From Minisyncoccota bacterium (lineage in GTDB: Bacteria; Patescibacteriota; Minisyncoccia; JBAYJV01): DNA of 64,000 bases. The stretch is taken from positions 264,302-328,301 of the forward strand of contig JBAYJV010000002.1 in assembly GCA_041664925.1 (NCBI GenBank), given 5' to 3'. Under the pieces are notes generated by a model. That model worked only from the letters and a program-made list of their open reading frames with translations. It had not been told where the DNA came from and made no database searches. Positions 6,830 to 52,691 of the stretch are shown here, piece by piece; position 1 is the first letter of the stretch, and each line of letters begins with the position of its first letter. Both the position numbers and the translations under genes were made by a program.

Positions 6830-6874
6830 CGAAATCTCGTTAATCATGAATCGTGAGTCGTTATTGACCGCTAA

Positions 6875-6910
6875 TAAAAAATGTACGAGGTCGAACCTCG
6901 TACATATCTT
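6875..6910 (-). terminator. intrinsic terminator for the minus-strand gene
   Basis: Hairpin gtacgagg-tcgaa-cctcgtac. On the minus strand it is followed by a T-run. Confidence 0.5.
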
Positions 6911-6920
6911 GCGAACTAGA

Positions 6921-7247: not shown

Positions 7248-9110
7248 ATGTCAAGCAATATTAGAAATTTTTGCATTATTGCCCACATCGATCACGGTAA
7301 GTCCACTCTGGCTGACCGTCTTTTGGAATTGACCAATACTATTCCCAAAAACAAAATGAAAGAACAGGTTTTAGATCGCATGGACTTGGAAAGAGAGCGG
7401 GGGATTACCATAAAAATGCAACCAGTCCGTATGATATATCATACGGAAATCCGAAATCCGAATATCGAAATTCGAAACAGTTTAAAAATTAAAAATTTAA
7501 AATTAGAAATTGAAGATTCAAGATTCATCTTGAATCTTATCGATACTCCCGGCCACATGGACTTTGGATATGAAGTTGAAAGATCATTGGCGGCAGTTGA
7601 AGGCGCAATTCTTTTAATTGATGCCACAAAAGGAGTCCAAGCGCAAACTCTGGCAAATTTAAGATTGGCTAGAGCGCAAAACTTAACAATCATTCCCGTG
7701 CTCAACAAAATGGACATGCCGGCCGCTCAAATCAATGAAGCTAAAATTAAGCAAGAAATAAAACAACTTTTAAATATTGATCCTGAAGAAATCCTTTCAG
7801 TTTCCGCCAAGCAGGGAACAGGCGTAGGGGCAGTTCTTGAGAGAATTATTAGAGATGTCCCTCCGCCAGAGATTCTTGAAAATAAACCTTTAAAAGCATT
7901 GGTCTTTGATTCAGCTTATGATTCCTATAAGGGCATCATTGCCTATGTTCGCATTTTTGAGGGAAGTTTAAAAAAGGCAGGAAAAATCAAACTTTTTAAT
8001 GTGGGAAAAGGCACAGAGACAATAGAGTTAGGATATTTTTCTCCTGATTTTAGTCCCCAAGAAGAAATTCGTACTGGCGAGATTGGTTATATTGCGACTG
8101 GTCTTAAGGATAGCCGATTAGTCAAAGTCGGAGAAACTATTACTAGTTTAGAAAATGGCACGCAAAATCCAGTCGCGGGTTATCACGAACCGGAGCCCCT
8201 TGTCTTCGCTAATGTTTTTCCTAGCGAAATGAAAAGCTTCCCCCAATTAACAGACAGCTTATCTAAGCTTCACTTAAATGATGCTTCATTTTATTACGAA
8301 CCGACTAATCATGCTATTTTGGGACGCGGCTTTAATGTTGGTTTTTTGGGAATGCTCCACTTGGAAATCGTTTTTGAGCGCCTCAAAAGAGAATATGGCA
8401 CAAAAATAATCCTGACTTCGCCTACAGTAATCTATAAGATTGTTAATAGGAATGGCAAAGAGATTGAAATTTATTCTGCCCAAGAAATGCCTGATCCCAA
8501 CGAAATTCAAGAGATCAAAGAACCATGGGTCGAGATTGAAATTATTACTCCCACTCAATATTCAAGCAAAATTCATGAAATTTTAAAAAACGCTCGCGGT
8601 ATTTTTAAAGACACCGAAGTCCTTTCAGGAGAAGATATTATTTTAAGATATGATGCGCCATTATCAGAAATTATTGAAGATTTTTTGGATAATTTGAAAA
8701 GTGTTTCCCAGGGATATGCTTCTTTTAGTTATAAAGTGTTAGATTACAAAACTGTTGATTTGGTAAAATTAGATTTTGCGATTGTCGGAGAAGTGAAGCC
8801 ATCTTTGTCAAAATTAGTTGAAAAAAATAAGTCTTATCGTTTTGCTCGTGACTTTCTTTTGCGCCTTAAAGAAAATCTGCCAGGTCAGCAATTTTCTCAA
8901 GCGATTCAGGCTAAAATTGGAGGAAAGATTATTGCCAGGGAAGACATTAAGGCAATGAGAAAAGATGTTACTGCTCCTCTTTATGGCGGAGATTACACCC
9001 GCAAAAAGAAGCTTCTTCAAAAACAAAAAAAAGGAAAGAAACGACTTCTAGAAAATGCTTCTGTTAGAATCCCGGAAGAAGTTTATTTAAAAATCTTGAA
9101 AAGAAAATAA
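7248..9110 (+). CDS. lepA: translation elongation factor 4 (LepA)
   Basis: N-terminus NIRNFCIIAHIDHGKSTL, DTPGH, NKMD and the LepA C-terminal domain. It contains about 21 extra residues between the G2 and G3 motifs. Confidence 0.95.
   Translation: MSSNIRNFCIIAHIDHGKSTLADRLLELTNTIPKNKMKEQVLDRMDLERERGITIKMQPVRMIYHTEIRNPNIEIRNSLKIKNLKLEIEDSRFILNLIDTPGHMDFGYEVERSLAAVEGAILLIDATKGVQAQTLANLRLARAQNLTIIPVLNKMDMPAAQINEAKIKQEIKQLLNIDPEEILSVSAKQGTGVGAVLERIIRDVPPPEILENKPLKALVFDSAYDSYKGIIAYVRIFEGSLKKAGKIKLFNVGKGTETIELGYFSPDFSPQEEIRTGEIGYIATGLKDSRLVKVGETITSLENGTQNPVAGYHEPEPLVFANVFPSEMKSFPQLTDSLSKLHLNDASFYYEPTNHAILGRGFNVGFLGMLHLEIVFERLKREYGTKIILTSPTVIYKIVNRNGKEIEIYSAQEMPDPNEIQEIKEPWVEIEIITPTQYSSKIHEILKNARGIFKDTEVLSGEDIILRYDAPLSEIIEDFLDNLKSVSQGYASFSYKVLDYKTVDLVKLDFAIVGEVKPSLSKLVEKNKSYRFARDFLLRLKENLPGQQFSQAIQAKIGGKIIAREDIKAMRKDVTAPLYGGDYTRKKKLLQKQKKGKKRLLENASVRIPEEVYLKILKRK
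7444..7530. repeat. CGAAAT-rich repeat-like segment plus palindrome inside the lepA coding sequence
   Basis: ggaaatccgaaatccgaatatcgaaattcgaaacag resembles the termini of the intergenic elements at 14696, 21976 and 23888. It is followed by the palindrome agattcaagat/atcttgaatct. Confidence 0.45.
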
Positions 9111-13642: not shown

Positions 13643-13778
13643 CTAAATTAATAAAGTTAGAGTTTCGAAATATTGCCTAGAAAATTGTAGAATCATAAAA
13701 AATTTATTAAAACTTTCAATTATCAATTTTCAATTTTCAGATGACTTAGTTCTTAATTGAAAATTAAAAATTAAATTT

Positions 13779-14687
13779 ATGTTTATTCCTTTTGTTCGTA
13801 TCCTAAAAACTGGTTTTTCTGATTTTTGGCGTAATAAATGGGTTTCTCAAGCCACTTTAGGCGTAATGATAATCACTCTTTTCGTCATCGTTTCATTTTT
13901 CATGCTTAATGGTGTGATGGGAAGCTTGATCGCTGATTTAAAATCGCGCATGGATATTAGTGTTTATTTTAAAATTGACACTGATGAAAGTGAGATTTTG
14001 AAAATTAAAAACAACCTTGATGATTTGAGCCAGGTTAAAAATATAGAATACATATCAAGAAACGATGCCTTAACTCGTTTTCAAAAGCGCCACCAAAATG
14101 ATCCTTTGATTCTACAGAGCCTAGAAGAAATTGGTTCAAATCCACTAACCGCTTCGCTTAATGTTCAGGCCAATGATCCAACATCAGACTTTCCTTTTAT
14201 AAGTCAATTTTTAGATAAAAATTATAGCAATTTGATAGATAAAGTAAATTATCAAGAAAATAAGGATATTATTTCACGAATCAGCAGTTTTTCTGCAGGC
14301 ACAAAAAAGGCTGGCATTATTTTAAGCCTCATTCTTGTTACTATCGTCATCCTGGTAACATTTAACACAATTCGATTAACAATTTATTCTGTTAGAGATG
14401 AGATTGGCATTATGCGCCTTGTTGGCGCAAGCAATGCTTATATAAGAGGACCTTTTATTATTGAGGGAATTATTTATGGGGTTATCGCTACTTTTGTAAG
14501 CACACTTGCTTGCTGGATGGTTTTTAAAGTAATCAGTCCGAAGATTTCATCAATGTTGCTGGATTTTAGCTTGTATAATCACTTTGTTCAAAATTTTTGG
14601 TCCATTATTGGCATTGAACTTGTTATTGGCATCGCCTTAGGAGCTTTGGGAAGTTATATTGCCATTAGAAAATACTTAAAGGTATAA
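13779..14687 (+). CDS. ftsX: cell division permease FtsX
   Basis: TM1, a large extracytoplasmic loop and three C-terminal TMs. Adjacent to ftsE. Confidence 0.8.
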   Translation: MFIPFVRILKTGFSDFWRNKWVSQATLGVMIITLFVIVSFFMLNGVMGSLIADLKSRMDISVYFKIDTDESEILKIKNNLDDLSQVKNIEYISRNDALTRFQKRHQNDPLILQSLEEIGSNPLTASLNVQANDPTSDFPFISQFLDKNYSNLIDKVNYQENKDIISRISSFSAGTKKAGIILSLILVTIVILVTFNTIRLTIYSVRDEIGIMRLVGASNAYIRGPFIIEGIIYGVIATFVSTLACWMVFKVISPKISSMLLDFSLYNHFVQNFWSIIGIELVIGIALGALGSYIAIRKYLKV

Positions 14688-14695
14688 TAAAAAAA

Positions 14696-14845
14696 TCCGA
14701 AGCACGAAATCAGAAATACGAAATAATATTTAAATTATAATTCTTAAATTCAAAACCGTTTAATATTTTAGATTTTGAAAATTAGAATTCCCGCCTGTCG
14801 GTAGGCAGGTGTTTCGAATTTCGATATTCGAATTTCGAGTTTATA
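14696..14845. repeat. MITE-like intergenic element, copy A
   Basis: CGAAAT-rich left end, AT-rich centre, GC palindrome cccgcctgtcggtaggcagg, and right end gtttcgaatttcgatattcgaatttcgagttta abutting the dcd start. Confidence 0.6.
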
Positions 14846-14850
14846 GGTTT

Positions 14851-15534
14851 ATGTTACTTTCCCGCAGCGCAATTTTAAGACATATGAAAGAGGGGAATAT
14901 TGTTATTGAGCCTTTTGATGAGAGAAATTTAACTTCTGCTTCGTATGATGTGACATTGGGAAAGTATTATTGGCGAGAGACTATTCATGATGGTGGATAT
15001 ATCACCTATAATCCTTACTCTAAGAAGGATGTATATCGTGTTTGGGGACCAGAATACTACGCAGCAAAACCATTGAAAGAATGGTTAATAAATTCACCTT
15101 TTAAGAAAATGTCTGGTATCAGTATGAACGATCTGGTAATTTGGATAGCGCCCGGAGAAACTATTTTGTCCCATACTCAAGAATTTATCGGTGGAAGGAA
15201 TTGCGTTAACACAATGATGAAAGCAAGATCTTCAATGGGAAGAAATTTTATTGAAATTTGCAAGGATGCTGGTTGGGGAGATATTGGCTATGTGAACCGT
15301 TGGACAGTTGAAATAACCAATAATAGTCGTTTCTATCATATTCCGCTTGTTGTCGGTCGCAGAATTGGGCAAATTACCTTTTTTGAAACAGAACCAATCG
15401 ATGAAAAAGACGCTTATTATAAATCGGGAAAATATCAGGGCGGGAAAGATATTGAAAAATTGAAAAAAGACTGGTCTCCAGAAACAATGATCCCAAGAAT
15501 GTATAAAGATTGGGAAGTTAAAGAAAAACAATAG
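14851..15534 (+). CDS. dcd: dCTP deaminase
   Basis: N-terminus LSRSAILRHMKEGNIVIEPF...SYDVTLG and C-terminal GKYQGG motif typical of Dcd. Start chosen at the MLLSRS methionine. Confidence 0.75.
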   Translation: MLLSRSAILRHMKEGNIVIEPFDERNLTSASYDVTLGKYYWRETIHDGGYITYNPYSKKDVYRVWGPEYYAAKPLKEWLINSPFKKMSGISMNDLVIWIAPGETILSHTQEFIGGRNCVNTMMKARSSMGRNFIEICKDAGWGDIGYVNRWTVEITNNSRFYHIPLVVGRRIGQITFFETEPIDEKDAYYKSGKYQGGKDIEKLKKDWSPETMIPRMYKDWEVKEKQ

Positions 15535-15747
15535 TTTTTCCTACTTTAAACTATAAACTACAAACCTTAAATATCATCGCTAATATCCGACACTTAATGT
15601 TGGATATTTTTTACGGCTCATTTCATTTGAGTCATAGAATTTATTGAAGTCCGACTTCAATAAATTAAAAATCTTATAAAAACTTGACAAATAATATTAT
15701 AAAGATTAGGATAAGTGGTAAACGGTCGCTGATCTAAGGGAGGTCAG

Positions 15748-16077
15748 ATGGAAAGGTTGCCAGTGCTTCTGAACTTGGAGTTGGAAGGACTTATTGATGT
15801 AGACGGTCATTTGCTGATTGGTTGCCAAAATAAAGGAAGATTTTCAAAATCAAAACAAGCTAAAATCGAACTAATCAGAAAAGCGCTTGAAAAAAGATAC
15901 CCTGGCATACATATGGTTTCTCATGGCTCAAGATATGTTAGGTTTACTAGGTTCGATTCGCTTGAAAACCAATATTCGTTTGCAGCCGTAGACGAATTAC
16001 GCTCTCTTGGTATTGGTATTCTTGTTCTTTCGCTAAAAGATAAAGAAAGAATTGTAAGAGAAATGGAACTTAAATAA
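15748..16077 (+). CDS. hypothetical protein (109 aa)
   Basis: gggagg SD. A terminator follows. Confidence 0.45.
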   Translation: MERLPVLLNLELEGLIDVDGHLLIGCQNKGRFSKSKQAKIELIRKALEKRYPGIHMVSHGSRYVRFTRFDSLENQYSFAAVDELRSLGIGILVLSLKDKERIVREMELK

Positions 16078-16096
16078 ACATGCCTATAGTCCGCAC

Positions 16097-16130
16097 CCCC
16101 CGAAGAGAGTTTCTTCGGGGATTTGTTTAT
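16097..16130 (+). terminator. rho-independent terminator
   Basis: ccccgaaga-gagtt-tcttcgggg hairpin plus T-rich tail. Confidence 0.6.
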
Positions 16131-16191
16131 TATTCTTTATTTTATACAAAAAACATGTTATTATTCATAAATTAACTATTTTTTAACCACT

Positions 16192-17847
16192 ATGATTAAT
16201 CAACTTAAAAAATATATCACAAAGAAAAAATGGACCAAGAAAAAAATTGTTTTAATAATCATTGGTCTTGTTCTTGTTTTAGTTGTCGGTAATGGTATTT
16301 ATAAAAAACTCACAACAAATATTGAAGACACTCTTAATATTTACAAAGTTACCAGACAAGATTTAATGACTACTGTTTCTGAGGCTGGTATTGTAAATAT
16401 TTCCGATGAAATCGGCCTGAGTTTTAAATATGGCGGAAAAATCGATAACATCTATGTGGAAATAGGCGACAAGGTGAAACGAGGCGAGTCCTTGGTTAAG
16501 GTTGATTCAAGTGATTTTTTTATTCAGTATCAACAAACTGACGCATCAGTTCAATCAGCTCAAGCTCAGTTAGATAAGCTTTTGGCTGGCGCAACTTTGT
16601 CAGACATCAACATTGTACAAGCACAGTTGGAAAGCGCTAAAGTAAGTCTTCAAAATAAAGAAGAAAGTCTTGCTAACACTAAACTTGATGCGGACAATGA
16701 TATTGCCGATGTTTACCAGAATGCCATTAATAATATTAATGATGTTTATCTTGACACTTATAATGTTTATACCAACACCGTTCTGATACAAAGAACTTAT
16801 TTTGGTAATTATGATCAAGAAGGAATTAATGTTAGTCAAGCGAAAGATCAAATTAAAACCGCCTTAGATTCTATTAAATTAGACGCAGACAATATTTCTT
16901 CTCCAAATATTACAAATGAAAATATTGATAGCGCGCTCATAAGAACAAAAACTAATCTTGATAGCGTCTATGGTGCATTAGATATTATCCGTAATGCTAT
17001 GGAAACAGACGCTTACCGCAATTCCGTATCTAGCGCAAATAAAACTATTGTCGACACAGACAAATCAACAACGAACACCAATAGAACATTAATTACTACT
17101 ACTCAACAAACTATTTCGTCAACAAAGATAACTAATACCACTAACATTTCTGCTGCTGATGCTTTAGTCAGATCAGCGAAAAGATCTGTTGATGAAACAG
17201 AAAAATCCCTGCAAAAGCTATTAGCAGGACCAACTCAAGAAGATATTAATATCTACAAAGCAAATTTGGCAAGAGCTCAAGCTGAAAGATCGGCAGCCTC
17301 GAATAAAGTTAACGAGTCTACGCTAAGAAGCCCGGTTGATGGTCAGGTTGTCAAGATTAATGTAAGGGTCGGAGAAATTGCTTCTATCAATCAGGTTGTC
17401 ATGTACATCCTTCCGGAAAAACCATTTCAGGTCAAAGTTGATATATATGAAGAAGACATTGCTAAAATAAAGATAGGAAATCTCGTTGATATTAAACTTG
17501 TAGCTTTCCCAGACACTGAAATTGCCGGCAAAGTTTCATCTATTGACCCTATCGATAAAACTGTTAATGAGGTTGTTTATTATGAAGTATCTATGGACTT
17601 TGATCAACAAATCGAAGGACTTAAGCCAGGAATGACGGCAGACATAGTTATTATTGCGAATAAACAGACAGATTTACTCATTATCCCAGAATCATCAATC
17701 ATCAAGGAAACCGGTAAGAATTATGTTAAGGTGTTAGATGACAAGAAGATTATTAAGAAAGAAGTATTGGTCGGCAATAAAGGAGATGACGCTATGATAG
17801 AAATAAAAGAAGGACTTCAAGAAAACGATAAAGTAATTTTGCCATAA
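16192..17847 (+). CDS. HlyD-family membrane fusion / periplasmic adaptor protein with long coiled-coil
   Basis: N-terminal TM, beta-strand motif (VTRQDL...), very long coiled-coil and a C-terminal beta-barrel. Precedes a MacB-like ABC pair. Confidence 0.7.
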   Translation: MINQLKKYITKKKWTKKKIVLIIIGLVLVLVVGNGIYKKLTTNIEDTLNIYKVTRQDLMTTVSEAGIVNISDEIGLSFKYGGKIDNIYVEIGDKVKRGESLVKVDSSDFFIQYQQTDASVQSAQAQLDKLLAGATLSDINIVQAQLESAKVSLQNKEESLANTKLDADNDIADVYQNAINNINDVYLDTYNVYTNTVLIQRTYFGNYDQEGINVSQAKDQIKTALDSIKLDADNISSPNITNENIDSALIRTKTNLDSVYGALDIIRNAMETDAYRNSVSSANKTIVDTDKSTTNTNRTLITTTQQTISSTKITNTTNISAADALVRSAKRSVDETEKSLQKLLAGPTQEDINIYKANLARAQAERSAASNKVNESTLRSPVDGQVVKINVRVGEIASINQVVMYILPEKPFQVKVDIYEEDIAKIKIGNLVDIKLVAFPDTEIAGKVSSIDPIDKTVNEVVYYEVSMDFDQQIEGLKPGMTADIVIIANKQTDLLIIPESSIIKETGKNYVKVLDDKKIIKKEVLVGNKGDDAMIEIKEGLQENDKVILP

Positions 17848-17852
17848 TTTTC

Positions 17853-18536
17853 ATGACCGACAAAAGACCAATTATTGAACTACAAGAAGTCTGGAAAACA
17901 TATGCTCCAGGCAAGATTCCCGTGCATGCTCTAAGAGGAGCCAATCTTAGTATTTACCCTGGAAAATTTGTAACTATTGTCGGTCCAAGCGGATCAGGAA
18001 AATCAACACTTCTACATCTAGTCGGATGCTTAGATCTTCCAACAAGCGGAAGCATATTTTTAGATAGTCAAGACATTTCTAAAATGACAGAAAATGAATT
18101 AGCTCAAATTAGGGGAAAGAAAATTGGTTTTATTTTTCAACAATTTAATATTTTACAAAACCTTACTGCTATTGAAAATGTAACACTTCCGATGGCATTC
18201 ATTAATCATATGTCGGTAGAAAAGAGAAATGAACGGGCAATAGAACTTCTAACCTTGGTTGGCCTAGAAAAAAGAATTAATCATCGACCTACTGAAATGT
18301 CAGGGGGCGAGCAACAAAGAGTTGCTATTGCAAGAGCTCTCGCTAATGATCCTGATGTTATTCTAGCTGATGAACCTACGGGAAATCTTGATTCTGTGAC
18401 AGGCGAAAAGATTATGGGTATTTTTCAACATCTTCACGAAAAAGAAAAAAAGACAATCATTATTATAACTCACGATCACGAGGTTGCTGCTTACGGTCAA
18501 ATGATTGTCAAAATAAAAGATGGTCAAGTTGTTTAA
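17853..18536 (+). CDS. ABC transporter ATP-binding protein (MacB/LolD-like)
   Basis: Walker [10 protein letters not shown], signature MSGGEQQR, Walker [12 protein letters not shown]. Confidence 0.85.
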
Positions 18537-18542
18537 ATTTAA

Positions 18543-19757
18543 ATGAAGAAAGATTACTTAAGAATTGCAATTAGAAATTTAAAAAGCCGATCCCTTCGAA
18601 GTTGGCTGACGATTTTTGGTTTTGTTATTGGCGTTTTTATGATCATCAGTCTTCTTTCTTTATCAGAAGGCATGAAACAAGTCGTTATGAACCAAATGAA
18701 AATGATGGGTTCTGATACTGTGATGATAACTCCTGGAGATTCAGATAATCTTGTAAATACAATGATGGGAAATATGAAAATTTCCGAAGAAAACATAAGG
18801 ACGATTGAAAAAACCGATGGCGTGGAAAAGGTTATTCCATATAACTGGGGAGGAGAAACAATGAGATTTGGCGGAAAAAAGAAAACTGTTATTCTTTATG
18901 GTTTTCCCATGGATAAAGAAAGTGTCTATTACCTTGAAAGCAAATTTGGCATCAAGGCCGCTCAAGGCAAGTTTCCGGGAGAAAACAAAAGAGAATTATT
19001 GATTGGCTCTGTTGTCGTTACAGAAATTTTTCCAGGCATCGCTATTGGCGATGAAGCCTATATTGCTGGTAATAAATTTAAGGTTGTCGGTATTGCCCGT
19101 GCCCAAGGAAGCAAGCAAGACGACAGCATGGTCGCTTTAGACATTAATTTATTTAGAAAGATCACGGGAGCAAGAAAAGATGCTCCCATGGTTATTGCAA
19201 TCATCAAAGAAGGTTATGACCAAAAAGATGTGTCTAATATGATTAAAGTCAATCTGGAAAAGACAGGAAAACGCCAAAGAGGAAATGATTCTGCGTCATT
19301 TAGCGTTATTAATAGCGAAAAGGCGATGGAAACCGCCAGTAATGTTATTGGCACGATTCAAGCAGTAATTTTTGCGATTGCCGCTTTTTCGATTTTAATC
19401 GGTGCTATTGGCATTATGAATACGATGTACACTTCGGTCAGAGAACGCACCAAGGAAATTGGTATTATGAAAGCTGTCGGCGCCAAAACAACGGCCATTA
19501 CTCAAATATTTCTGATTGAAGCTGGGATTATGGGTTTAATTGGGGGAATGGGCGGAATGGTTCTAGGTATAACCCTCGCCAAATTAGCCGCTTTTGTAAT
19601 TAGAACCCAGGGATCAATGGCAATCCAAGCTTATATTTCTCCAGGAATGGTCATTTTCACGATTATTTTTGCTATTGCTGTTGGTTGTGTTTCTGGATAT
19701 TTGCCCGCCAGAAAAGCGGCAAAATTAAATCCAGTCGACGCGCTAAGATACGAATAA
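18543..19757 (+). CDS. ABC transporter permease, FtsX-like/MacB family
   Basis: TM1, large periplasmic domain and three C-terminal TMs. C-terminal motif KLNPVDALRYE. Confidence 0.8.
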   Translation: MKKDYLRIAIRNLKSRSLRSWLTIFGFVIGVFMIISLLSLSEGMKQVVMNQMKMMGSDTVMITPGDSDNLVNTMMGNMKISEENIRTIEKTDGVEKVIPYNWGGETMRFGGKKKTVILYGFPMDKESVYYLESKFGIKAAQGKFPGENKRELLIGSVVVTEIFPGIAIGDEAYIAGNKFKVVGIARAQGSKQDDSMVALDINLFRKITGARKDAPMVIAIIKEGYDQKDVSNMIKVNLEKTGKRQRGNDSASFSVINSEKAMETASNVIGTIQAVIFAIAAFSILIGAIGIMNTMYTSVRERTKEIGIMKAVGAKTTAITQIFLIEAGIMGLIGGMGGMVLGITLAKLAAFVIRTQGSMAIQAYISPGMVIFTIIFAIAVGCVSGYLPARKAAKLNPVDALRYE

Positions 19758-19912
19758 TTAACCTTATAACTTTACAAAGAAACAACTATCGAGAATAAAT
19801 TTCGATGGTTTTTATTAACCCAAGAATTGACAAAAGAAATTTTTCTGATACACTAATCACACTAGTACCTTACAATTATCCTTAGTGTCTTAAAAAAAGA
19901 CGAGGAGGAAAT

Positions 19913-20359
19913 ATGGTTAGAAAAGCTTCGGTTGAAAAATTCGATGCTGTGGTTTACTGGGCAAACCAAGTTAAGAAAGCTGAAGAAGGCGTTAGAATAC
20001 AGTGGGCTGTTTATTGGTTTATTTTGGGTATTATCAGACAAATTTCTGAAACAGGGCAAAAGGCATCATTTAAAGAAATCAATGATCGACTCGTCTTAGA
20101 AATGCAAAGAAAAGATATTCGTTCCAATAATGTATTTATGATTATCAGTGGCGGCAGGCTAAGAGAAACTCTTCTTAGGCTTAGCGCAATGAAACTACTA
20201 GCTCACACCAAAGAAAACAGCGAAAGATTAGCTTTTGTAACAGAAAACAGTCGATTTGCCTTGACTGAGCGTGGCATAGAAAGATTAAGGGGCGAAGAAG
20301 CTCGAAAACTAATAGAACAACATATCTTTTGTTGTCGAGATGATCGGGGCGTAAAATAG
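19913..20359 (+). CDS. hypothetical protein (148 aa)
   Basis: gaggagg SD. A terminator hairpin ggggcgtaa/ttacgcccc overlaps the stop. Confidence 0.45.
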   Translation: MVRKASVEKFDAVVYWANQVKKAEEGVRIQWAVYWFILGIIRQISETGQKASFKEINDRLVLEMQRKDIRSNNVFMIISGGRLRETLLRLSAMKLLAHTKENSERLAFVTENSRFALTERGIERLRGEEARKLIEQHIFCCRDDRGVK

Positions 20360-20451
20360 TTACGCCCTCTTTTTTTGATTATTTTTTTGTGATACGATTG
20401 GTATATAGGAATGTGTACTTGATTTTGTACACAGTGTTTGTGTTTTATATT

Positions 20452-21966
20452 ATGAAATATCAACCAACAATCGGTCTTGAAATTCATACTGAGCTAAAAA
20501 CAAATTCTAAAATGTTTTGTTCGTGTAGGAACGATCCAGACGAAAAACAGCCAAATAAGAATGTTTGTCCAGTTTGTTTAGCCCACCCAGGAACACTCCC
20601 TGTCATGAACAAATCAGCAATCGAAAAGGTTCTTAAAACAGGCCTTGCGCTCAATTGTAAAATTGCCACACATTCATATTTTGATAGAAAAAATTATTTT
20701 TATCCTGATTTACCAAAAGGCTATCAAATTTCTCAATACAAAGACCCCTTATGTGGTCCTGGTTACTTAGATATTAATGATAAGCACATCGGAATTACCA
20801 GGATTCACCTAGAAGAGGACACTGGTCGCTTAGCTCATCCAAAGGGCGCTGATTATAGTCTTGTTGATTTTAATCGCGCTGGAGTACCCTTGATGGAGTT
20901 AGTAACCGATCCTGATATTAAAACAGGCCTTGAGGCCAGAAAATTTTGCGAAGAGCTTCAGCTTATTCTTCGTTATCTTGAAGTTTCTGATGCTGATATG
21001 GAAAAAGGTCAAATGCGTTGCGAGGTAAATATCAGCGTATCAAAAGATAAAAAACTAGGTACAAAAGTTGAGATAAAAAACTTAAATTCATTTAGATCGG
21101 TTGAAAAATCAATTGATTATGAGATTAAAAGACAAACTGACGTTTTAGATGGCGGAGAAAAAATTGTTCAGGAAACTAGGGGATGGGACGAAGGAAAACA
21201 GGCAACCGTTTCTCAGAGAATAAAAGAAGAAGCTCACGATTATCGATATTTTCCCGAACCAGACCTTCCTCATTTTGATATTCACCACGAGGAAAATCCT
21301 GACGATTTAAAGAAAATCAACGAAGGAGGCATTTATTTGGCAGATATAAGAAAAACTATGCCAGAATTACCACAACAAAGAAAAAATCGTTTCCTTGCAG
21401 AATATTTTCTTCCCCAAGATCAGGTTGAAATCTTGGTTAAGAATAAAAGTCTAGGCGAGTATTTTGAAAAAGTTGCCTCGGAATTGAAAGCTTGGGTTTT
21501 AACTGAAGAACAAAAACATACCATTCCTTTGCCTGAAGCAAAAAAACTCTACAAGCTTGCAGCTAATTACATAATTACTGAACTTCAAAAGTTAACAAAA
21601 GAGTCTCCATCCAAAGAAAATCTTGAAAAAATAACACCAGAAAACTTTGCTGAACTTATAAAAATGACTTACTTAGGACAAATCAATTCTTCAGCGGCTC
21701 AAGTTGTCTTAAAAGAAATGTTCATTAATGGCGGTGACCCGTCAAATATTATTGATCAAAAGAAGCTCAGGCAAGTAAGCGATGTTTCTGTTATTGATGA
21801 AGTGATTGAAAAAATCATTGCTCAAAATCCTAAAGTAGTTGCCGATTATAAAAATGGACAAGAAAACGCCCTACAATTTTTTGTCGGACAGATCATGAAA
21901 GAAACGAAAGGACAAGTAAATCCGCAGATAGCCCAAGAAATGCTTTATAAAAAACTAAAGCATTAA
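20452..21966 (+). CDS. gatB: Asp/Glu-tRNA(Asn/Gln) amidotransferase subunit B
   Basis: N-terminus YQPTIGLEIHTEL...CSC...CPVC is typical of GatB. Start chosen at the MKYQPT methionine. Confidence 0.9.
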   Translation: MKYQPTIGLEIHTELKTNSKMFCSCRNDPDEKQPNKNVCPVCLAHPGTLPVMNKSAIEKVLKTGLALNCKIATHSYFDRKNYFYPDLPKGYQISQYKDPLCGPGYLDINDKHIGITRIHLEEDTGRLAHPKGADYSLVDFNRAGVPLMELVTDPDIKTGLEARKFCEELQLILRYLEVSDADMEKGQMRCEVNISVSKDKKLGTKVEIKNLNSFRSVEKSIDYEIKRQTDVLDGGEKIVQETRGWDEGKQATVSQRIKEEAHDYRYFPEPDLPHFDIHHEENPDDLKKINEGGIYLADIRKTMPELPQQRKNRFLAEYFLPQDQVEILVKNKSLGEYFEKVASELKAWVLTEEQKHTIPLPEAKKLYKLAANYIITELQKLTKESPSKENLEKITPENFAELIKMTYLGQINSSAAQVVLKEMFINGGDPSNIIDQKKLRQVSDVSVIDEVIEKIIAQNPKVVADYKNGQENALQFFVGQIMKETKGQVNPQIAQEMLYKKLKH

Positions 21967-21975
21967 ATCCTAAGC

Positions 21976-22112
21976 TCGAATTACGAAATTCGAAACACCT
22001 GCCTGCCGGCAGGCAGGAATTCAAATTTCGAAAGTCTAATGACAAAATGGTTTTAATTTAGAATTTTGAATTTAGATATTGTTTCGGATTTCAAGTTTCG
22101 ATATTCGAATTT
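21976..22112. repeat. MITE-like intergenic element, copy B
   Basis: cgaattacgaaattcgaaac, then perfect 20-bp palindrome cctgcctgccggcaggcagg, AT-rich core and right end tagatattgtttcggatttcaagtttcgatattcgaattt abutting the alr ATG. Confidence 0.6.
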
Positions 22113-23234
22113 ATGAAATACAGAAGTTGGCTTGAGATTGACTCATCAAACATAATACATAATCTAAAAGAAGCTCAAGGTCTTGTAAATAACAAGGTTA
22201 AATTGATGGTCGTTGTGAAGTCAAACGCCTATGGTCACGGCACTATAGAGATGTCAAAACTTGTTGTTTCTAAGGGCGTTGATTGGCTGGGAGTTGATTC
22301 TTTAGAAGAGGCTTCTTTAATACGAGAAAGCGGTATTAAGACGCCTATTTTAGTTTTAGGATATATATTAAAAGAAAATCTCAAAAAAGCAGTTGAAAAC
22401 GATATAAGTGTCGTGGTATATAACAAAGAAACACTAGCGGAATTGTCGAAATTAAAAAAACCAGCAAAAATTCACATAAAGGTTGAGACAGGCACAATGA
22501 GACAGGGGGTTTTGCTTGAAGATTTGGAAGAATTTATCAGATGCGCTAAAAAATCGTTAAATATAATCGTAGAAGGAATCTATACTCATTTTGCCAATAT
22601 CGAAGATACTACCGATCATAGCTTTGCCAAAGAACAGCTTCGAAAATTCAGCCAAGCTCTCCAGATTGCCAAAGATTTGAAAATAAAACCGCTTGCTCAT
22701 ACAGCTTGTAGCGCTGCCTTGATTCTTTTTCCCGAAACTCATTTCGATATGGTACGATTTGGTATCAGTATGTATGGTTATTGGTCATCTCCTCAAACCC
22801 TTGTTTCCTCGAAAGAAAATAAAAAAAGCATATTATTAAAGCCCGCTCTTTCGTGGAAATCAGTCATCGCTCAAATAAAGAACGTTAAGAGCGACACACC
22901 TGTTGGCTACGGTCTTATGGAAAAGACAAATCAAGATACAAAAATCGCTATTGTACCTGTGGGTTATTGGGATGGTTACGATCGAAAACTTTCAAGTGTC
23001 GGCAATGTGCTGATTGGCGGAAAGAGATGTAAAATTATTGGCAGAATTTGTATGAATATGTTAATGGTAGACATTAATCACCTTCCAGATGTTAAGGTCG
23101 AAGACGAAGTTGTCTTAATAGGACATCAAGGTGAAGAAAATATAGCCGTAGAAGAATTAGCTCAAAAAATCGGTACTATTAATTACGAAATTATCTCTCG
23201 AATTAATCCTTTAATTCCGAGAATTTACAAGTAA
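22113..23234 (+). CDS. alr: alanine racemase
   Basis: PLP-binding motif VVKSNAYGHG and overall Alr architecture. Confidence 0.85.
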   Translation: MKYRSWLEIDSSNIIHNLKEAQGLVNNKVKLMVVVKSNAYGHGTIEMSKLVVSKGVDWLGVDSLEEASLIRESGIKTPILVLGYILKENLKKAVENDISVVVYNKETLAELSKLKKPAKIHIKVETGTMRQGVLLEDLEEFIRCAKKSLNIIVEGIYTHFANIEDTTDHSFAKEQLRKFSQALQIAKDLKIKPLAHTACSAALILFPETHFDMVRFGISMYGYWSSPQTLVSSKENKKSILLKPALSWKSVIAQIKNVKSDTPVGYGLMEKTNQDTKIAIVPVGYWDGYDRKLSSVGNVLIGGKRCKIIGRICMNMLMVDINHLPDVKVEDEVVLIGHQGEENIAVEELAQKIGTINYEIISRINPLIPRIYK

Positions 23235-23325
23235 ATTGTCACGTGTCGCGCGTAGCGTGTCACAAATCTGTTCCAGTTATAGAAGCCTCGTGACCCGCAA
23301 ACCCGCAACTCGCGATCTTAAGTAA

Positions 23326-23886
23326 ATGTTGTGGATAATACTCGTTATTATTCTCGTCCCTGTTCTTTTCGTCATCTTTACCTACAATAAACTCATCACT
23401 CTTCGAACAAGATCGGAAGAAGCATGGTCAGACATTAAGGTCCAGCTAAAAAGACGTTACGATCTTATTCCAAACCTCATTGAAACCGTTAAGGGATACG
23501 CAAAACACGAAAAAAGTCTTTTTGAGAATGTTACCAAAGCTCGCGCTGATGCTATGAAAGCCGAAGGAGCAGAAGATTCTCTTAAAAAAGAAAATCAACT
23601 TTCTCAAACTCTCAAATCTTTGTTTGCCGTTTCAGAAAATTATCCCGAACTGAAAGCTAATACCAATTTCCTTGATCTTCAAAATGAATTATCAGACACG
23701 GAAGACAAGATTCAAGCGTCACGCAGATTTTATAATGGCAACGTAAGAGATCTTAATATCGCCATTCAAACTTTCCCAACTAATATTATTGCAAGCACCT
23801 TCAAGTTCGCCAAAAAAGATCTCTTTGAACTCGCATCAGAAGAAGAAGGAAAAACACCGAAGGTTGACTTTTCTTCTGAAAAGTAA
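23326..23886 (+). CDS. lemA: LemA family protein
   Basis: N-terminal TM plus conserved LemA region (YNKLI.LR...W..I..QLKRRYDLIPNL). Adjacent to an M48 protease, a typical pairing. Confidence 0.8.
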   Translation: MLWIILVIILVPVLFVIFTYNKLITLRTRSEEAWSDIKVQLKRRYDLIPNLIETVKGYAKHEKSLFENVTKARADAMKAEGAEDSLKKENQLSQTLKSLFAVSENYPELKANTNFLDLQNELSDTEDKIQASRRFYNGNVRDLNIAIQTFPTNIIASTFKFAKKDLFELASEEEGKTPKVDFSSEK

Positions 23887-23887
23887 A

Positions 23888-24022
23888 TCCGAAATCAAAA
23901 ATTCGAAATCCTAAACAAATTCAAATATTTAAATTCAAAATAAATAAACAGTTTTGTGTTTGAAGTTTAGAGTTTTAAATTTAGATATTGTTTCGAATTT
24001 CGTGCTTCGAATTTCGAGTTTA
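23888..24022. repeat. MITE-like intergenic element, copy C
   Basis: tccgaaatcaaaaattcgaaat, then AT-rich core and right end tagatattgtttcgaatttcgtgcttcgaatttcgagttta. Shares a 24-nt core with copy B. Confidence 0.6.
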
Positions 24023-24036
24023 TTTATTTTAATTCC

Positions 24037-24933
24037 ATGACCTTATACACCCAAAAATCCTCTAATATTCGCAAAACATTCTTTTTGATGTTTTTCTTTA
24101 TGGTTTTTGTTATTCTTATTGGCTGGATTTTTGGTCAGGCGTATGATTCTCCAGATATTCTCTATATTGCTGTTCTAATTAGCGTCTTTATGTCATTTGG
24201 CAGCTATTGGTGGTCAGATAAAATTGTTACTAAAATGGCTCACGCCAAACCAATAGAGCACAGTGAAAACCCAGAACTTTATCACATTGTCGAAAATCTT
24301 TGCATTACTGCCGGACTCTTGCAGCCAAAAATCTATCTGATTAACGAGGCTCAGCCCAATGCCTTTGCTACTGGCAGAGACCAAAAACATGCAGTTATTG
24401 CCGTCACATCTGGTTTACTTGAAAAATTAGATCGTTCGGAAATAGAAGGAGTAATTTCTCACGAATTATCGCATATTGGCAACCGCGACATGTTACTAAT
24501 GACTGTCACTGTCGTTTTAGCTGGTTTTATTGCAATTATTTCTGACTTATTCAGGCGAGGAAGATTATTTGGCGGCAGAAGGTCAAGTGATGACAATGGC
24601 ATACAAGGAATTATGATGATTGTCGCTATAATTGTTTCGATTTTAGCGCCTTTAGCTGCTACCTTAATTCGTTTAGCAGTTTCCCGCAAACGAGAGTTTT
24701 TGGCCGATTCGACTGGCGCTTTAATTACCAGATACCCCGAAGGACTTGCCAGCGCGCTTGAAAAAATCGCCAAAGACGAAAATCCGATGCCTTCTGCGAC
24801 CAATGCCACAGCGCATCTTTATATTGCCAGTCCATTTCGCGGCAAACAAGCGCTTAGTGGATTAACTAAACTCTTTATGACGCACCCGCCGATAGAGGAA
24901 AGAGTAAGAAGATTAAGAGAAACGAAAGTTTAG
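24037..24933 (+). CDS. htpX: M48 family zinc metalloprotease, HtpX-like
   Basis: HELSH (HExxH) motif within a TM-flanked context. Confidence 0.8.
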   Translation: MTLYTQKSSNIRKTFFLMFFFMVFVILIGWIFGQAYDSPDILYIAVLISVFMSFGSYWWSDKIVTKMAHAKPIEHSENPELYHIVENLCITAGLLQPKIYLINEAQPNAFATGRDQKHAVIAVTSGLLEKLDRSEIEGVISHELSHIGNRDMLLMTVTVVLAGFIAIISDLFRRGRLFGGRRSSDDNGIQGIMMIVAIIVSILAPLAATLIRLAVSRKREFLADSTGALITRYPEGLASALEKIAKDENPMPSATNATAHLYIASPFRGKQALSGLTKLFMTHPPIEERVRRLRETKV

Positions 24934-26241: not shown

Positions 26242-26330
26242 GTTGTCTTGTTACAGAGTCTAAAGTTGACACATGGTGGGTTCGCATAGTCCTGCCGGCA
26301 GGCAGGGGTCGAGATAAAATAAAATAACTT

Positions 26331-52535: not shown

Positions 52536-52566
52536 AATTTATTGTTTATTTTTTGAGTATAAGGTG

Positions 52567-52595
52567 TTGACATTTTAGTTCTTGTACCTTAAGAT
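52567..52595 (+). promoter_or_regulatory. candidate internal promoter upstream of tuf
   Basis: TTGACA, 17-nt spacer, TAAGAT. A 5' UTR hairpin ttgtctt-tttata-aagacaa follows. Confidence 0.35.
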
Positions 52596-52691
52596 AGGTT
52601 ATATAACTAAAGATAAAATCTGTATTTAAGTCGGAGGTTAGTTTTTTGTCTTTTTATAAGACAAAAACTTACGACATTTAATATAAAAAAT

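Follow-up and report, generated by a model that had tools for sequence, protein, structure and literature searches.

Palindromic repeats at three operon junctions of a Minisyncoccota genome as probable miniature derivatives of an rRNA intervening sequence-type cassette

Background

Why do the ftsX/dcd, gatB/alr and lemA/htpX spacers of a Minisyncoccota bacterium (GenBank assembly GCA_041664925.1, contig JBAYJV010000002.1) each hold a copy of one palindromic repeat, ending close to the next start codon? These copies, designated here A, B and C, lie in a 64,000-nt stretch of the contig (positions 264,302 to 328,301, forward strand; "the window", numbered from its first base). A sequence-only reading of the window had described them as non-autonomous elements of the miniature inverted-repeat transposable element (MITE) type that might supply promoter or leader sequences to dcd, alr and htpX. 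We put the probability at roughly three in four that A, B, C and a fourth, partial copy (D) in lepA are miniature derivatives, lacking an open reading frame (ORF), of a widespread selfish hairpin cassette of the kind found as intervening sequences (IVSs) in rRNA genes. The evidence for this reading, and for the alternatives to it, is presented below.

Results and discussion

Structure and limits of the window copies

Repeat comparison, folding and a hidden Markov model (HMM) of the element ends all confirmed the three intergenic repeats. Each is a long imperfect palindrome of 137-150 nt without an ORF, with ends composed of tandem heptamers. The consensus of the ends is four copies of AAATYCG followed by AAACA on one side and TGTTT followed by four copies of CGRATTT on the other, each end forming a sharp 33-nt arm with four heptamers. 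The variable bases of the heptamers fall into few "words" (ATC, ATT, GCA and TAT), and arms are referred to below as GCA- or TAT-type. The limits of the window copies were set with the arm HMM and by the point, exactly 33 nt outward of the AAACA/TGTTT anchors, at which pairing ends; these refined limits were adopted because pairing stops there among 79 related copies aligned and is random beyond. The copies and their main parts are as follows.

14693-14842: copy A, full, ORF-less, 150 nt, flanked by the ftsX stop (14687) and the dcd ATG (14851); fold -36.4 kcal/mol; site empty in relatives L141 and L143
14693-14725, plus strand: GCA-type 33-nt arm of A, AAATCCG AAGCACG AAATCAG AAATACG AAATA
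14790-14809: nested 20-nt GC palindrome of A, CCCGCCTGTCGGTAGGCAGG, between the inner stem and the TGTTT anchor
14810-14842, minus strand: TAT-type 33-nt arm of A, reverse complement AAACTCG AAATTCG AATATCG AAATTCG AAACA; HMM E-value 9e-9
21965-22112: copy B, full, ORF-less, 148 nt, from the gatB stop (21964-21966) to the base preceding the alr ATG (22113)
21998-22017: nested GC palindrome of B, CCTGCCTGCCGGCAGGCAGG, immediately past the AAACA anchor
23885-24021: copy C, full, ORF-less, without a GC palindrome, 137 nt, following the lemA stop (23884-23886), with the htpX ATG at 24037; arm E-values 4e-11 and 2e-7
7447 to approximately 7509 (HMM-matched arm 7447-7488), plus strand: copy D, a solo TAT-type arm with an inner remnant, in frame inside lepA (7248-9110)

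The arm HMM, trained solely on copies from other phyla and then run over the window, matched exactly seven arms: both arms of A, B and C and the solo arm in lepA. Six of these had E-values from 4e-11 to 2e-7, while the GCA arm of A (14694-14716) matched weakly (0.0027). There were 26 matches to the heptamer motif, compared with 7.8 ± 3.4 in shuffled sequences. Folding was likewise stronger than in shuffled sequence (z = -3.6 for A, -4.4 for B and -2.9 for C), with approximately 25 Watson-Crick pairs among the 33 positions of the outer arms and a further inner stem.

The sequence-only reading had located all three copies, but B begins 11 nt earlier than it proposed, the half copy in lepA was overlooked, and the 24-nt core described as identical between B and C matches at 23 of 24 positions (18 identical, one mismatch, 5 identical). 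Its observation that the copies end near the next ATG stands, with gaps of 8 nt for A (dcd), 0 nt for B (alr) and 15 nt for C (htpX). At the other side, the first AA of B and of C is the AA of the preceding TAA stop codon. A is inverted relative to B (an inverted match of 80% over 84 nt). Although their orientations are opposite, these two copies have the nested 20-nt GC palindrome in common, which indicates that both descend from a copy already bearing it.

This GC-rich palindrome, CCTGCC(TG)CCGG(CA)GGCAGG, also stands free near a tRNA-Ser gene at 26287-26306 and recurs in spacers of relatives (L122, 1402-1421; L123, 18066-18085; L096, 3758-3777), and could represent another very small dispersed repeat or the stem of a terminator. 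Other window spacers show a 7-nt period and are often palindromic (6830-6920, 13643-13778, 15535-15600, 23235-23325 and possibly 52536-52691), with a lag-7 identity of 0.37-0.50 against a background of approximately 0.3. They use different heptamers (TCGTNAN, TTTCAAT/ATTGAAA, AAACYAT and GTCACGN/CCCGCNA) and give no match to the arm HMM. Periodicity of 7 nt as a general property of spacers was considered and set aside, as it was seen in just 7-9 or so of the 31 spacers of at least 70 nt.

Insertion into tight operon junctions

Two relatives with the same gene order have the following junctions.

L141 (Alr identity 66%): ftsX/dcd 3 nt; gatB/alr -4 nt; alr/lemA 9 nt; lemA/htpX 10 nt
L143 (Alr identity 65%): ftsX/dcd 10 nt; gatB/alr overlap; alr/lemA 68 nt; lemA/htpX 3 nt

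Because these syntenic Paceibacteria have just -4 to +10 nt where A, B and C are found in the window, the copies are insertions into formerly tight operon junctions rather than conserved leaders. In a further relative (L121), the orthologous C is present and B keeps its right arm and lacks approximately 64 nt of its left half, including the GC palindrome. The lemA/htpX junction of L122 instead carries a different 218-nt element, and the ftsX/dcd junction of L123 a 76-nt palindrome built from other heptamers. The sequence-only reading had suggested looking for empty sites, and the L141 and L143 junctions provide them. It had also specified that a lack of empty sites combined with a lack of further copies would argue for conserved regulatory leaders; this combination was not observed. 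Its description of repeated, non-autonomous palindromic elements of the insertion type is borne out by the empty sites, by the occurrence of both orientations and by copies inside ORFs and rRNA (see below).

If the copies were conserved cis-regulatory leaders that provide dcd, alr and htpX with promoters, 5' leaders or translation signals, this would account for the fact that all three stop 0-15 nt before a start codon, and similar abutment occurs in other phyla and in a def|fmt junction described below (L228). There is also a weak sigma-70-like match inside A (14760-14788). We nonetheless consider this explanation very improbable for four reasons. First, syntenic relatives have the same genes without the element. 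Second, A is inverted relative to B. Third, no sigma-70-like consensus match was found in B or C. Fourth, the same element is found within ORFs and a 23S rRNA gene. The lack of a Shine-Dalgarno (SD) sequence before dcd, alr and htpX, which had been taken as a sign of a leader role, is uninformative: an SD motif (GGAG, GAGG or AGGA) precedes only eight of 74 gene starts in the window and is missing at the other 66, and the source Paceibacterota genome is largely without SD sequences. At the very 3' end of ftsX (14659-14688), just upstream of A, there is a sigma-70-like match better than any other in the region (TTGCCA-18-TATAAT, 11/12); its activity, if it has any, would place A in the 5' leader of dcd.

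Near the insertion sites, the alr/lemA spacer of L121 (2245-2320) contains three to four tandem units of approximately 18 nt, TAAAYAGTAATTTAKAAG, that are absent from the orthologous spacer of the window. The alr-bearing contigs of close relatives (P0122, P0123, P0135 and P0138), and most contigs carrying the four-helix-bundle gene discussed below, measure only 0.6-4 kb. Their number leads us to guess that the repeats may break metagenome assemblies.

A cross-phylum family of arm-bounded elements

GTDB, sampled at one genome per species, was scanned with a three-heptamer pattern of 18 specified bases. At least 131 matches were obtained, against approximately 17 expected by chance (an estimate from a uniform model). 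The matches listed include metagenome-assembled genomes (MAGs) of Desulfobacterota, Planctomycetota, Acidobacteriota/Aminicenantes, Omnitrophota, Verrucomicrobiota, Nitrospirota, Binatia, Armatimonadota, Gammaproteobacteria and several Patescibacteria, with locus GC contents of 0.34-0.71, which places the family in more than ten bacterial phyla. A complementary arm was present for 79 of the 131 matches listed, pairing ended at exactly 33 nt in 77 of these 79, and nearly all matches listed had the element ends AAATYCG...CGRATTT. The total length of 102 arm pairs was 65-293 nt (median approximately 143). Copies are mostly intergenic (40 between tandem, 13 between convergent and six between divergent genes) and often span from a stop codon to the following start. 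Judged by their arms, A, B, C and D are shown to belong to this family.

No description of the family was found in the searchable literature, whether by sequence words or by concept. Rfam gave nothing at the gathering score for the window and 18 loci with canonical copies, and at E ≤ 10 only chance-level matches. Integron attC sites, parS/NBS half-sites and CtsR boxes were dropped, their conserved motifs and the housekeeping gene context being unfitting. Carriage by phages was rejected as the cause of the cross-phylum spread, as merely 13 viral contigs match.

An ORF-bearing cassette with the same ends

In two loci (L061 and L083), the arms bracket an ORF of the PF05635 family ("23S rRNA intervening sequence protein"). 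When the 80 best metagenomic relatives of this ORF were scanned with the arm HMM, arms were found on both sides of the ORF in 53, on one side in 16 and on neither side in 11. These cassettes are 462-762 nt in length (median approximately 495) and have the same sharply bounded 33-nt ends: at one end four AA[xyz]CG heptamers precede AAACA, and at the other, in mirror image, TGTTT precedes four CG[x'y'z']TT. The ORF encodes a four-helix bundle of approximately 121 aa that matches NCBIfam TIGR02436 ("four helix bundle protein", E-value 1e-21); among solved structures the closest to it is PDB 2rld, an entry with five chains. The ATG lies inside the stem, at an offset of 40 nt from the element end in 21 of 33 cassettes, and the stop codon lies approximately 59-68 nt from the opposite end. 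The ORF-less copies correspond to the two ends of the cassette, of approximately 65 nt each, joined together. Accordingly, A, B and C have the 33-nt ends and lack the internal four-helix-bundle ORF, and because they lack it we file them as ORF-less derivatives rather than as full members.

Cassettes that are 80-92% identical sit in unrelated flanks. The protein subfamily is very large, with named members from Thermodesulfobacteriota, Planctomycetes, Nitrospiraceae, Zixibacteria and Patescibacteria; these are the phyla of the ORF-less copies, Patescibacteria included. One Patescibacteria MAG (GCA_023381035.1; L228, 3430-3930) carries an ORF cassette in a def|fmt junction that extends up to the start codon of fmt. 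The arms of this cassette have CTAAAT for CGAAAT, and this CG-to-TA change is mirrored in both of them. Only PF05635 ORFs recur between arms. An autonomous, transposase-bearing form was sought among long arm-to-arm intervals and rejected: these were two elements flanking dnaK (L060) or unrelated (L079).

These results bear on two further explanations. In the first, the copies would be classical MITEs with terminal inverted repeats, derived from a DDE transposon such as an IS630/Tc1-like or Correia-like element. Being short (135-150 nt), multicopy, non-coding and transposase-free, having terminal inverted repeats and corresponding to the ends of a longer element, they fit this description. Classical MITEs would also have a target-site duplication and a transposase-encoding parent. 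The sequence-only reading had proposed a check for target-site duplications: identity between flanks extends over 0, 1 or 2 nt in 54, 20 and five elements, respectively, compared with 49.8, 20.7 and 5.9 in shuffled flanks, so that no duplication of any length exceeds chance, and TA flanks are absent. Every larger unit bracketed by arms has the 121-aa four-helix-bundle gene and never a DDE enzyme. Classical MITE status is therefore not supported for these copies; the explanation is largely refuted by the duplication test, and we give it hardly any credence.

In the second, the copies would be single-stranded DNA hairpins moved by an HUH (Y1) transposase encoded elsewhere, either derived from IS200/IS605 or similar to repetitive extragenic palindromic (REP) sequences, their paired form (REPINs) and the REP-associated tyrosine transposase (RAYT). 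The long hairpin without a target-site duplication agrees with this, as do the mostly intergenic location (40 tandem and 13 convergent contexts against six divergent) and the differentiated ends with a conserved pattern of stem mismatches (see below), as in hairpins read by single-strand-specific enzymes. However, the ends are AAATYCG...CGRATTT without a GTAG-type head, the arms are not individually palindromic, and REP families are lineage-specific, whereas this sequence is found across phyla. No Y1 transposase gene was found between or beside arms in approximately 200 loci, where the consistent partner is PF05635. On balance, we regard a Y1-driven origin as quite unlikely.

Members in a 23S rRNA gene

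The 23S rRNA gene of a Saccharibacteria MAG (L024, 3425-6545) has four to five ORF-less elements in or adjoining it. In E. coli numbering, one of them follows position 546, and a 485-nt insertion that follows position 130 contains two more. We take positions 546 and approximately 130 to be helices 25 and 9, respectively, by textbook numbering. Further insertions in the same gene, after positions 650 and 1709, gave no match to the arm HMM. The family is shown to insert without a target-site duplication, in either orientation, in rRNA genes as well as in frame in ORFs.

Copies in frame within lepA and other genes

Copy D has the arm AAATCCG AAATCCG AATATCG AAATTCG AAACA (arm HMM E-value 7e-10) and no hairpin potential (z = +0.4 against shuffled sequences). 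Its translation, EIRNPNIEIRNSLKIKNLKLE, is a 21-aa insert in LepA between the ITIKxQxV strand and the DTPGH motif, as defined by alignment with the solved LepA structures of Aquifex and E. coli. The loop between the switch-I strand and DTPGH has from 0 to approximately 60 extra residues among 60 Patescibacteria LepA proteins (P0001-P0060), and many of these inserts are translated heptamer repeats (for example SLEIRNSKLEIAD, NPKSEIRN and KSQIQNS). On these comparisons the loop is an insertion hot spot across Patescibacteria. The lepA gene of L225 (LepA 52% identical) has a complete two-armed element, in frame, at the same position and that of L226 has a left arm only, while the nearest LepA relatives (93-94% identical) have a different repeat there (ISVNQR...) derived from ATCAGCG heptamers. 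Copies lying wholly within other ORFs were found in genes for transketolase (L058) and MnmA (L047).

Proposed mechanism and points against it

If the family behaves as the characterised 23S IVSs do, the transcribed hairpin would be cut by RNase III, and such cutting would allow a copy between cistrons or at an rRNA expansion site to be tolerated. A copy cut in this way would at most uncouple the flanking cistrons and would not act as a promoter or leader. We infer a pathway in which the copies are mobilised in trans, most likely helped by the four-helix-bundle protein of ORF-bearing copies.

Several observations weigh against derivation from an IVS-type cassette or against this mechanism. The window copies lie between protein genes or in lepA and not in rRNA, and the full palindromes inside ORFs (L225 and L058) are hard to square with obligatory RNase III cleavage. 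No PF05635 gene was detected with a local HMM in the window or in approximately 150 kb of relatives' loci, and a trans-acting partner within the source genome is an unproven candidate only. The cassette contains no transposase or recombinase, and we know of no catalytic activity for the four-helix-bundle protein. The arms within an element are also less complementary to each other than are arms of different elements (-27.1 versus -31.9 kcal/mol, p = 1e-6), and what is recognised may be the sequence motifs of the arms and not a perfect helix for RNase III. Lastly, the stem was not significantly more stable in the sense than in the antisense strand, either in tandem-gene contexts (25:18, p = 0.18) or in cassettes (27:21, with 72 G.U and 96 C.A pairs); given this lack of strand asymmetry, nothing here shows selection at the RNA level. 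Among the Pfam families matched by the 81 window ORFs, the 25 of 91 listed (those matched by most ORFs) are all housekeeping, and a transposase could be among the other 66.

The lower complementarity within elements goes with a pattern in the heptamer words. In the 107 elements analysed, the two arms share a word at a given position less often than expected (for heptamer 3, six observed versus 18.0 ± 3.4 expected), and most elements, the window copies among them, have one TAT arm and one GCA arm. The folded stem therefore holds conserved internal loops. The two arm types have no set orientation with respect to the ORF. Compensatory pairing specific to each element was rejected, as the opposite was observed. 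The asymmetry fits differentiated ends or a protein-read bubble, and proves neither.

Recognition by a protein also has a place in another explanation, in which the copies are domesticated structural modules (bidirectional terminators, mRNA stabilisers or protein-binding arrays), a role compatible with a selfish origin. CGAA is strictly conserved every 7 nt, with three variable bases that do not co-vary between arms, which fits protein recognition. The predicted hairpins are strong and, being A-rich in the 5' arm and U-rich in the 3' arm, look like bidirectional terminators, and C is kept at the orthologous site in L121. On the other hand, a terminator scan flagged only the nested GC palindrome of A, on the minus strand, the sites in other relatives are empty or differently filled, terminators need no sequence identity across phyla, and copies are present inside essential operons, where termination would be harmful. 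Domestication of this kind seems to us unlikely.

A bolder form of the IVS-type reading can be considered. PF05635 has been linked with diversity-generating retroelements (DGRs) (PMC10053308). The cassette protein is related to the DGR accessory protein Avd and might form a ring, in keeping with the five chains of PDB 2rld, that would read five 7-nt units per arm, driving a previously undescribed form of transposition or homing, possibly through an RNA or single-strand intermediate. In that case the classical rRNA IVSs would represent just the conspicuous part of a new mobile element class, present in more than ten phyla including the candidate phyla radiation (CPR) and spawning miniature copies that insert at operon junctions, in rRNA and in loops of protein-coding genes. 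We offer this as a speculation and consider it unlikely.

Significance

Although IVSs and the S23p ORF in them were recognised around 1990, there is still no explanation of how they arose, how they move or what the protein does (PMC4990558). The present analysis joins, by sequence, the IVS ORF, precisely bounded ends built of heptamers and a very large ORF-less population outside rRNA that reaches the reduced genomes of the CPR and the interior of essential genes. With ends, a candidate trans-factor and natural empty and filled sites now defined, the old question of the IVSs becomes testable. The family also accounts for the short "low-complexity" stretches, such as EIRNPK and SLEIRNSKLEI, that are inserted in proteins of Patescibacteria, and it serves as a warning that such spacers should not be read as promoters.

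Comparison with known systems

Among described repeats, the Rickettsia palindromic elements (RPEs) of Ogata et al. (2000) are similar in many respects. They are reportedly 100-150 nt in length, without a transposase or a clear target-site duplication and of unknown mechanism, and are said to occur between genes, within RNA genes and at surface loops of conserved protein genes, where they keep the reading frame. The present family likewise consists of palindromes of this size without target-site duplications, at intergenic, RNA-gene and in-frame sites, and its insertions in lepA and in L225, L226, L058 and L047 leave conserved protein genes undisrupted. RPEs are not known outside Rickettsia and relatives and have no known ORF-bearing parent; the family described here spans more than ten phyla, has arms with a 7-nt period and has an ORF-bearing form.

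MITEs, including Correia elements, are also short, non-autonomous, multicopy units that consist of the two ends of a longer element and often abut genes. In contrast to these, the family has no target-site duplication, TA target or IHF-site architecture, and the ORF of its parent is not a transposase. REP/REPIN-RAYT systems share with it the intergenic hairpins without target-site duplications and the preference for gene 3' ends. They differ in that the fetched loci lack both the GTAG/CTAC head and an adjoining Y1 transposase gene, and in the conservation of the family across phyla.

The TAACTGA heptamer repeats of Beggiatoaceae, Cyanobacteria and Bacteroidetes (PMC4679880) are heptamer-periodic, intergenic and patchily distributed across phyla, often lie a few nt upstream of starts whose genes lack an SD sequence, and have no known mechanism, all of which resembles the present family. 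Unlike it, they form direct tandem arrays with no palindromic partner, defined ends or ORF.

The closest counterparts are the IVSs of Coxiella burnetii and Leptospira (PMC4990558). The Coxiella IVS is considered selfish and of unknown origin; its terminal stem is cut by RNase III, and it has an S23p ORF with two to three tandem heptamers before the ATG, the number of which varies between strains (PMC4990558). The window copies depart from this pattern in being ORF-less, in lying in mRNA junctions or a protein gene and not in the 23S helices (9, 25 and 45) of classical IVSs, and in the heptamer itself (CGAAATY). The stem of the family is broken by conserved 3 x 3 mismatches, whereas that of Coxiella is a near-perfect 28-bp helix. 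Nevertheless, the window copies have the stem of terminal inverted repeats that characterises classical IVSs, and the family as a whole shares with them a long stem of this kind, a PF05635/TIGR02436 ORF starting close to the 5' arm, tandem heptamers in that arm (GACAGAT, two to three copies, in Coxiella), a status as selfish elements whose mobility mechanism is not known, and members that interrupt a 23S rRNA gene (L024, near position 130 and at position 546 in E. coli numbering).

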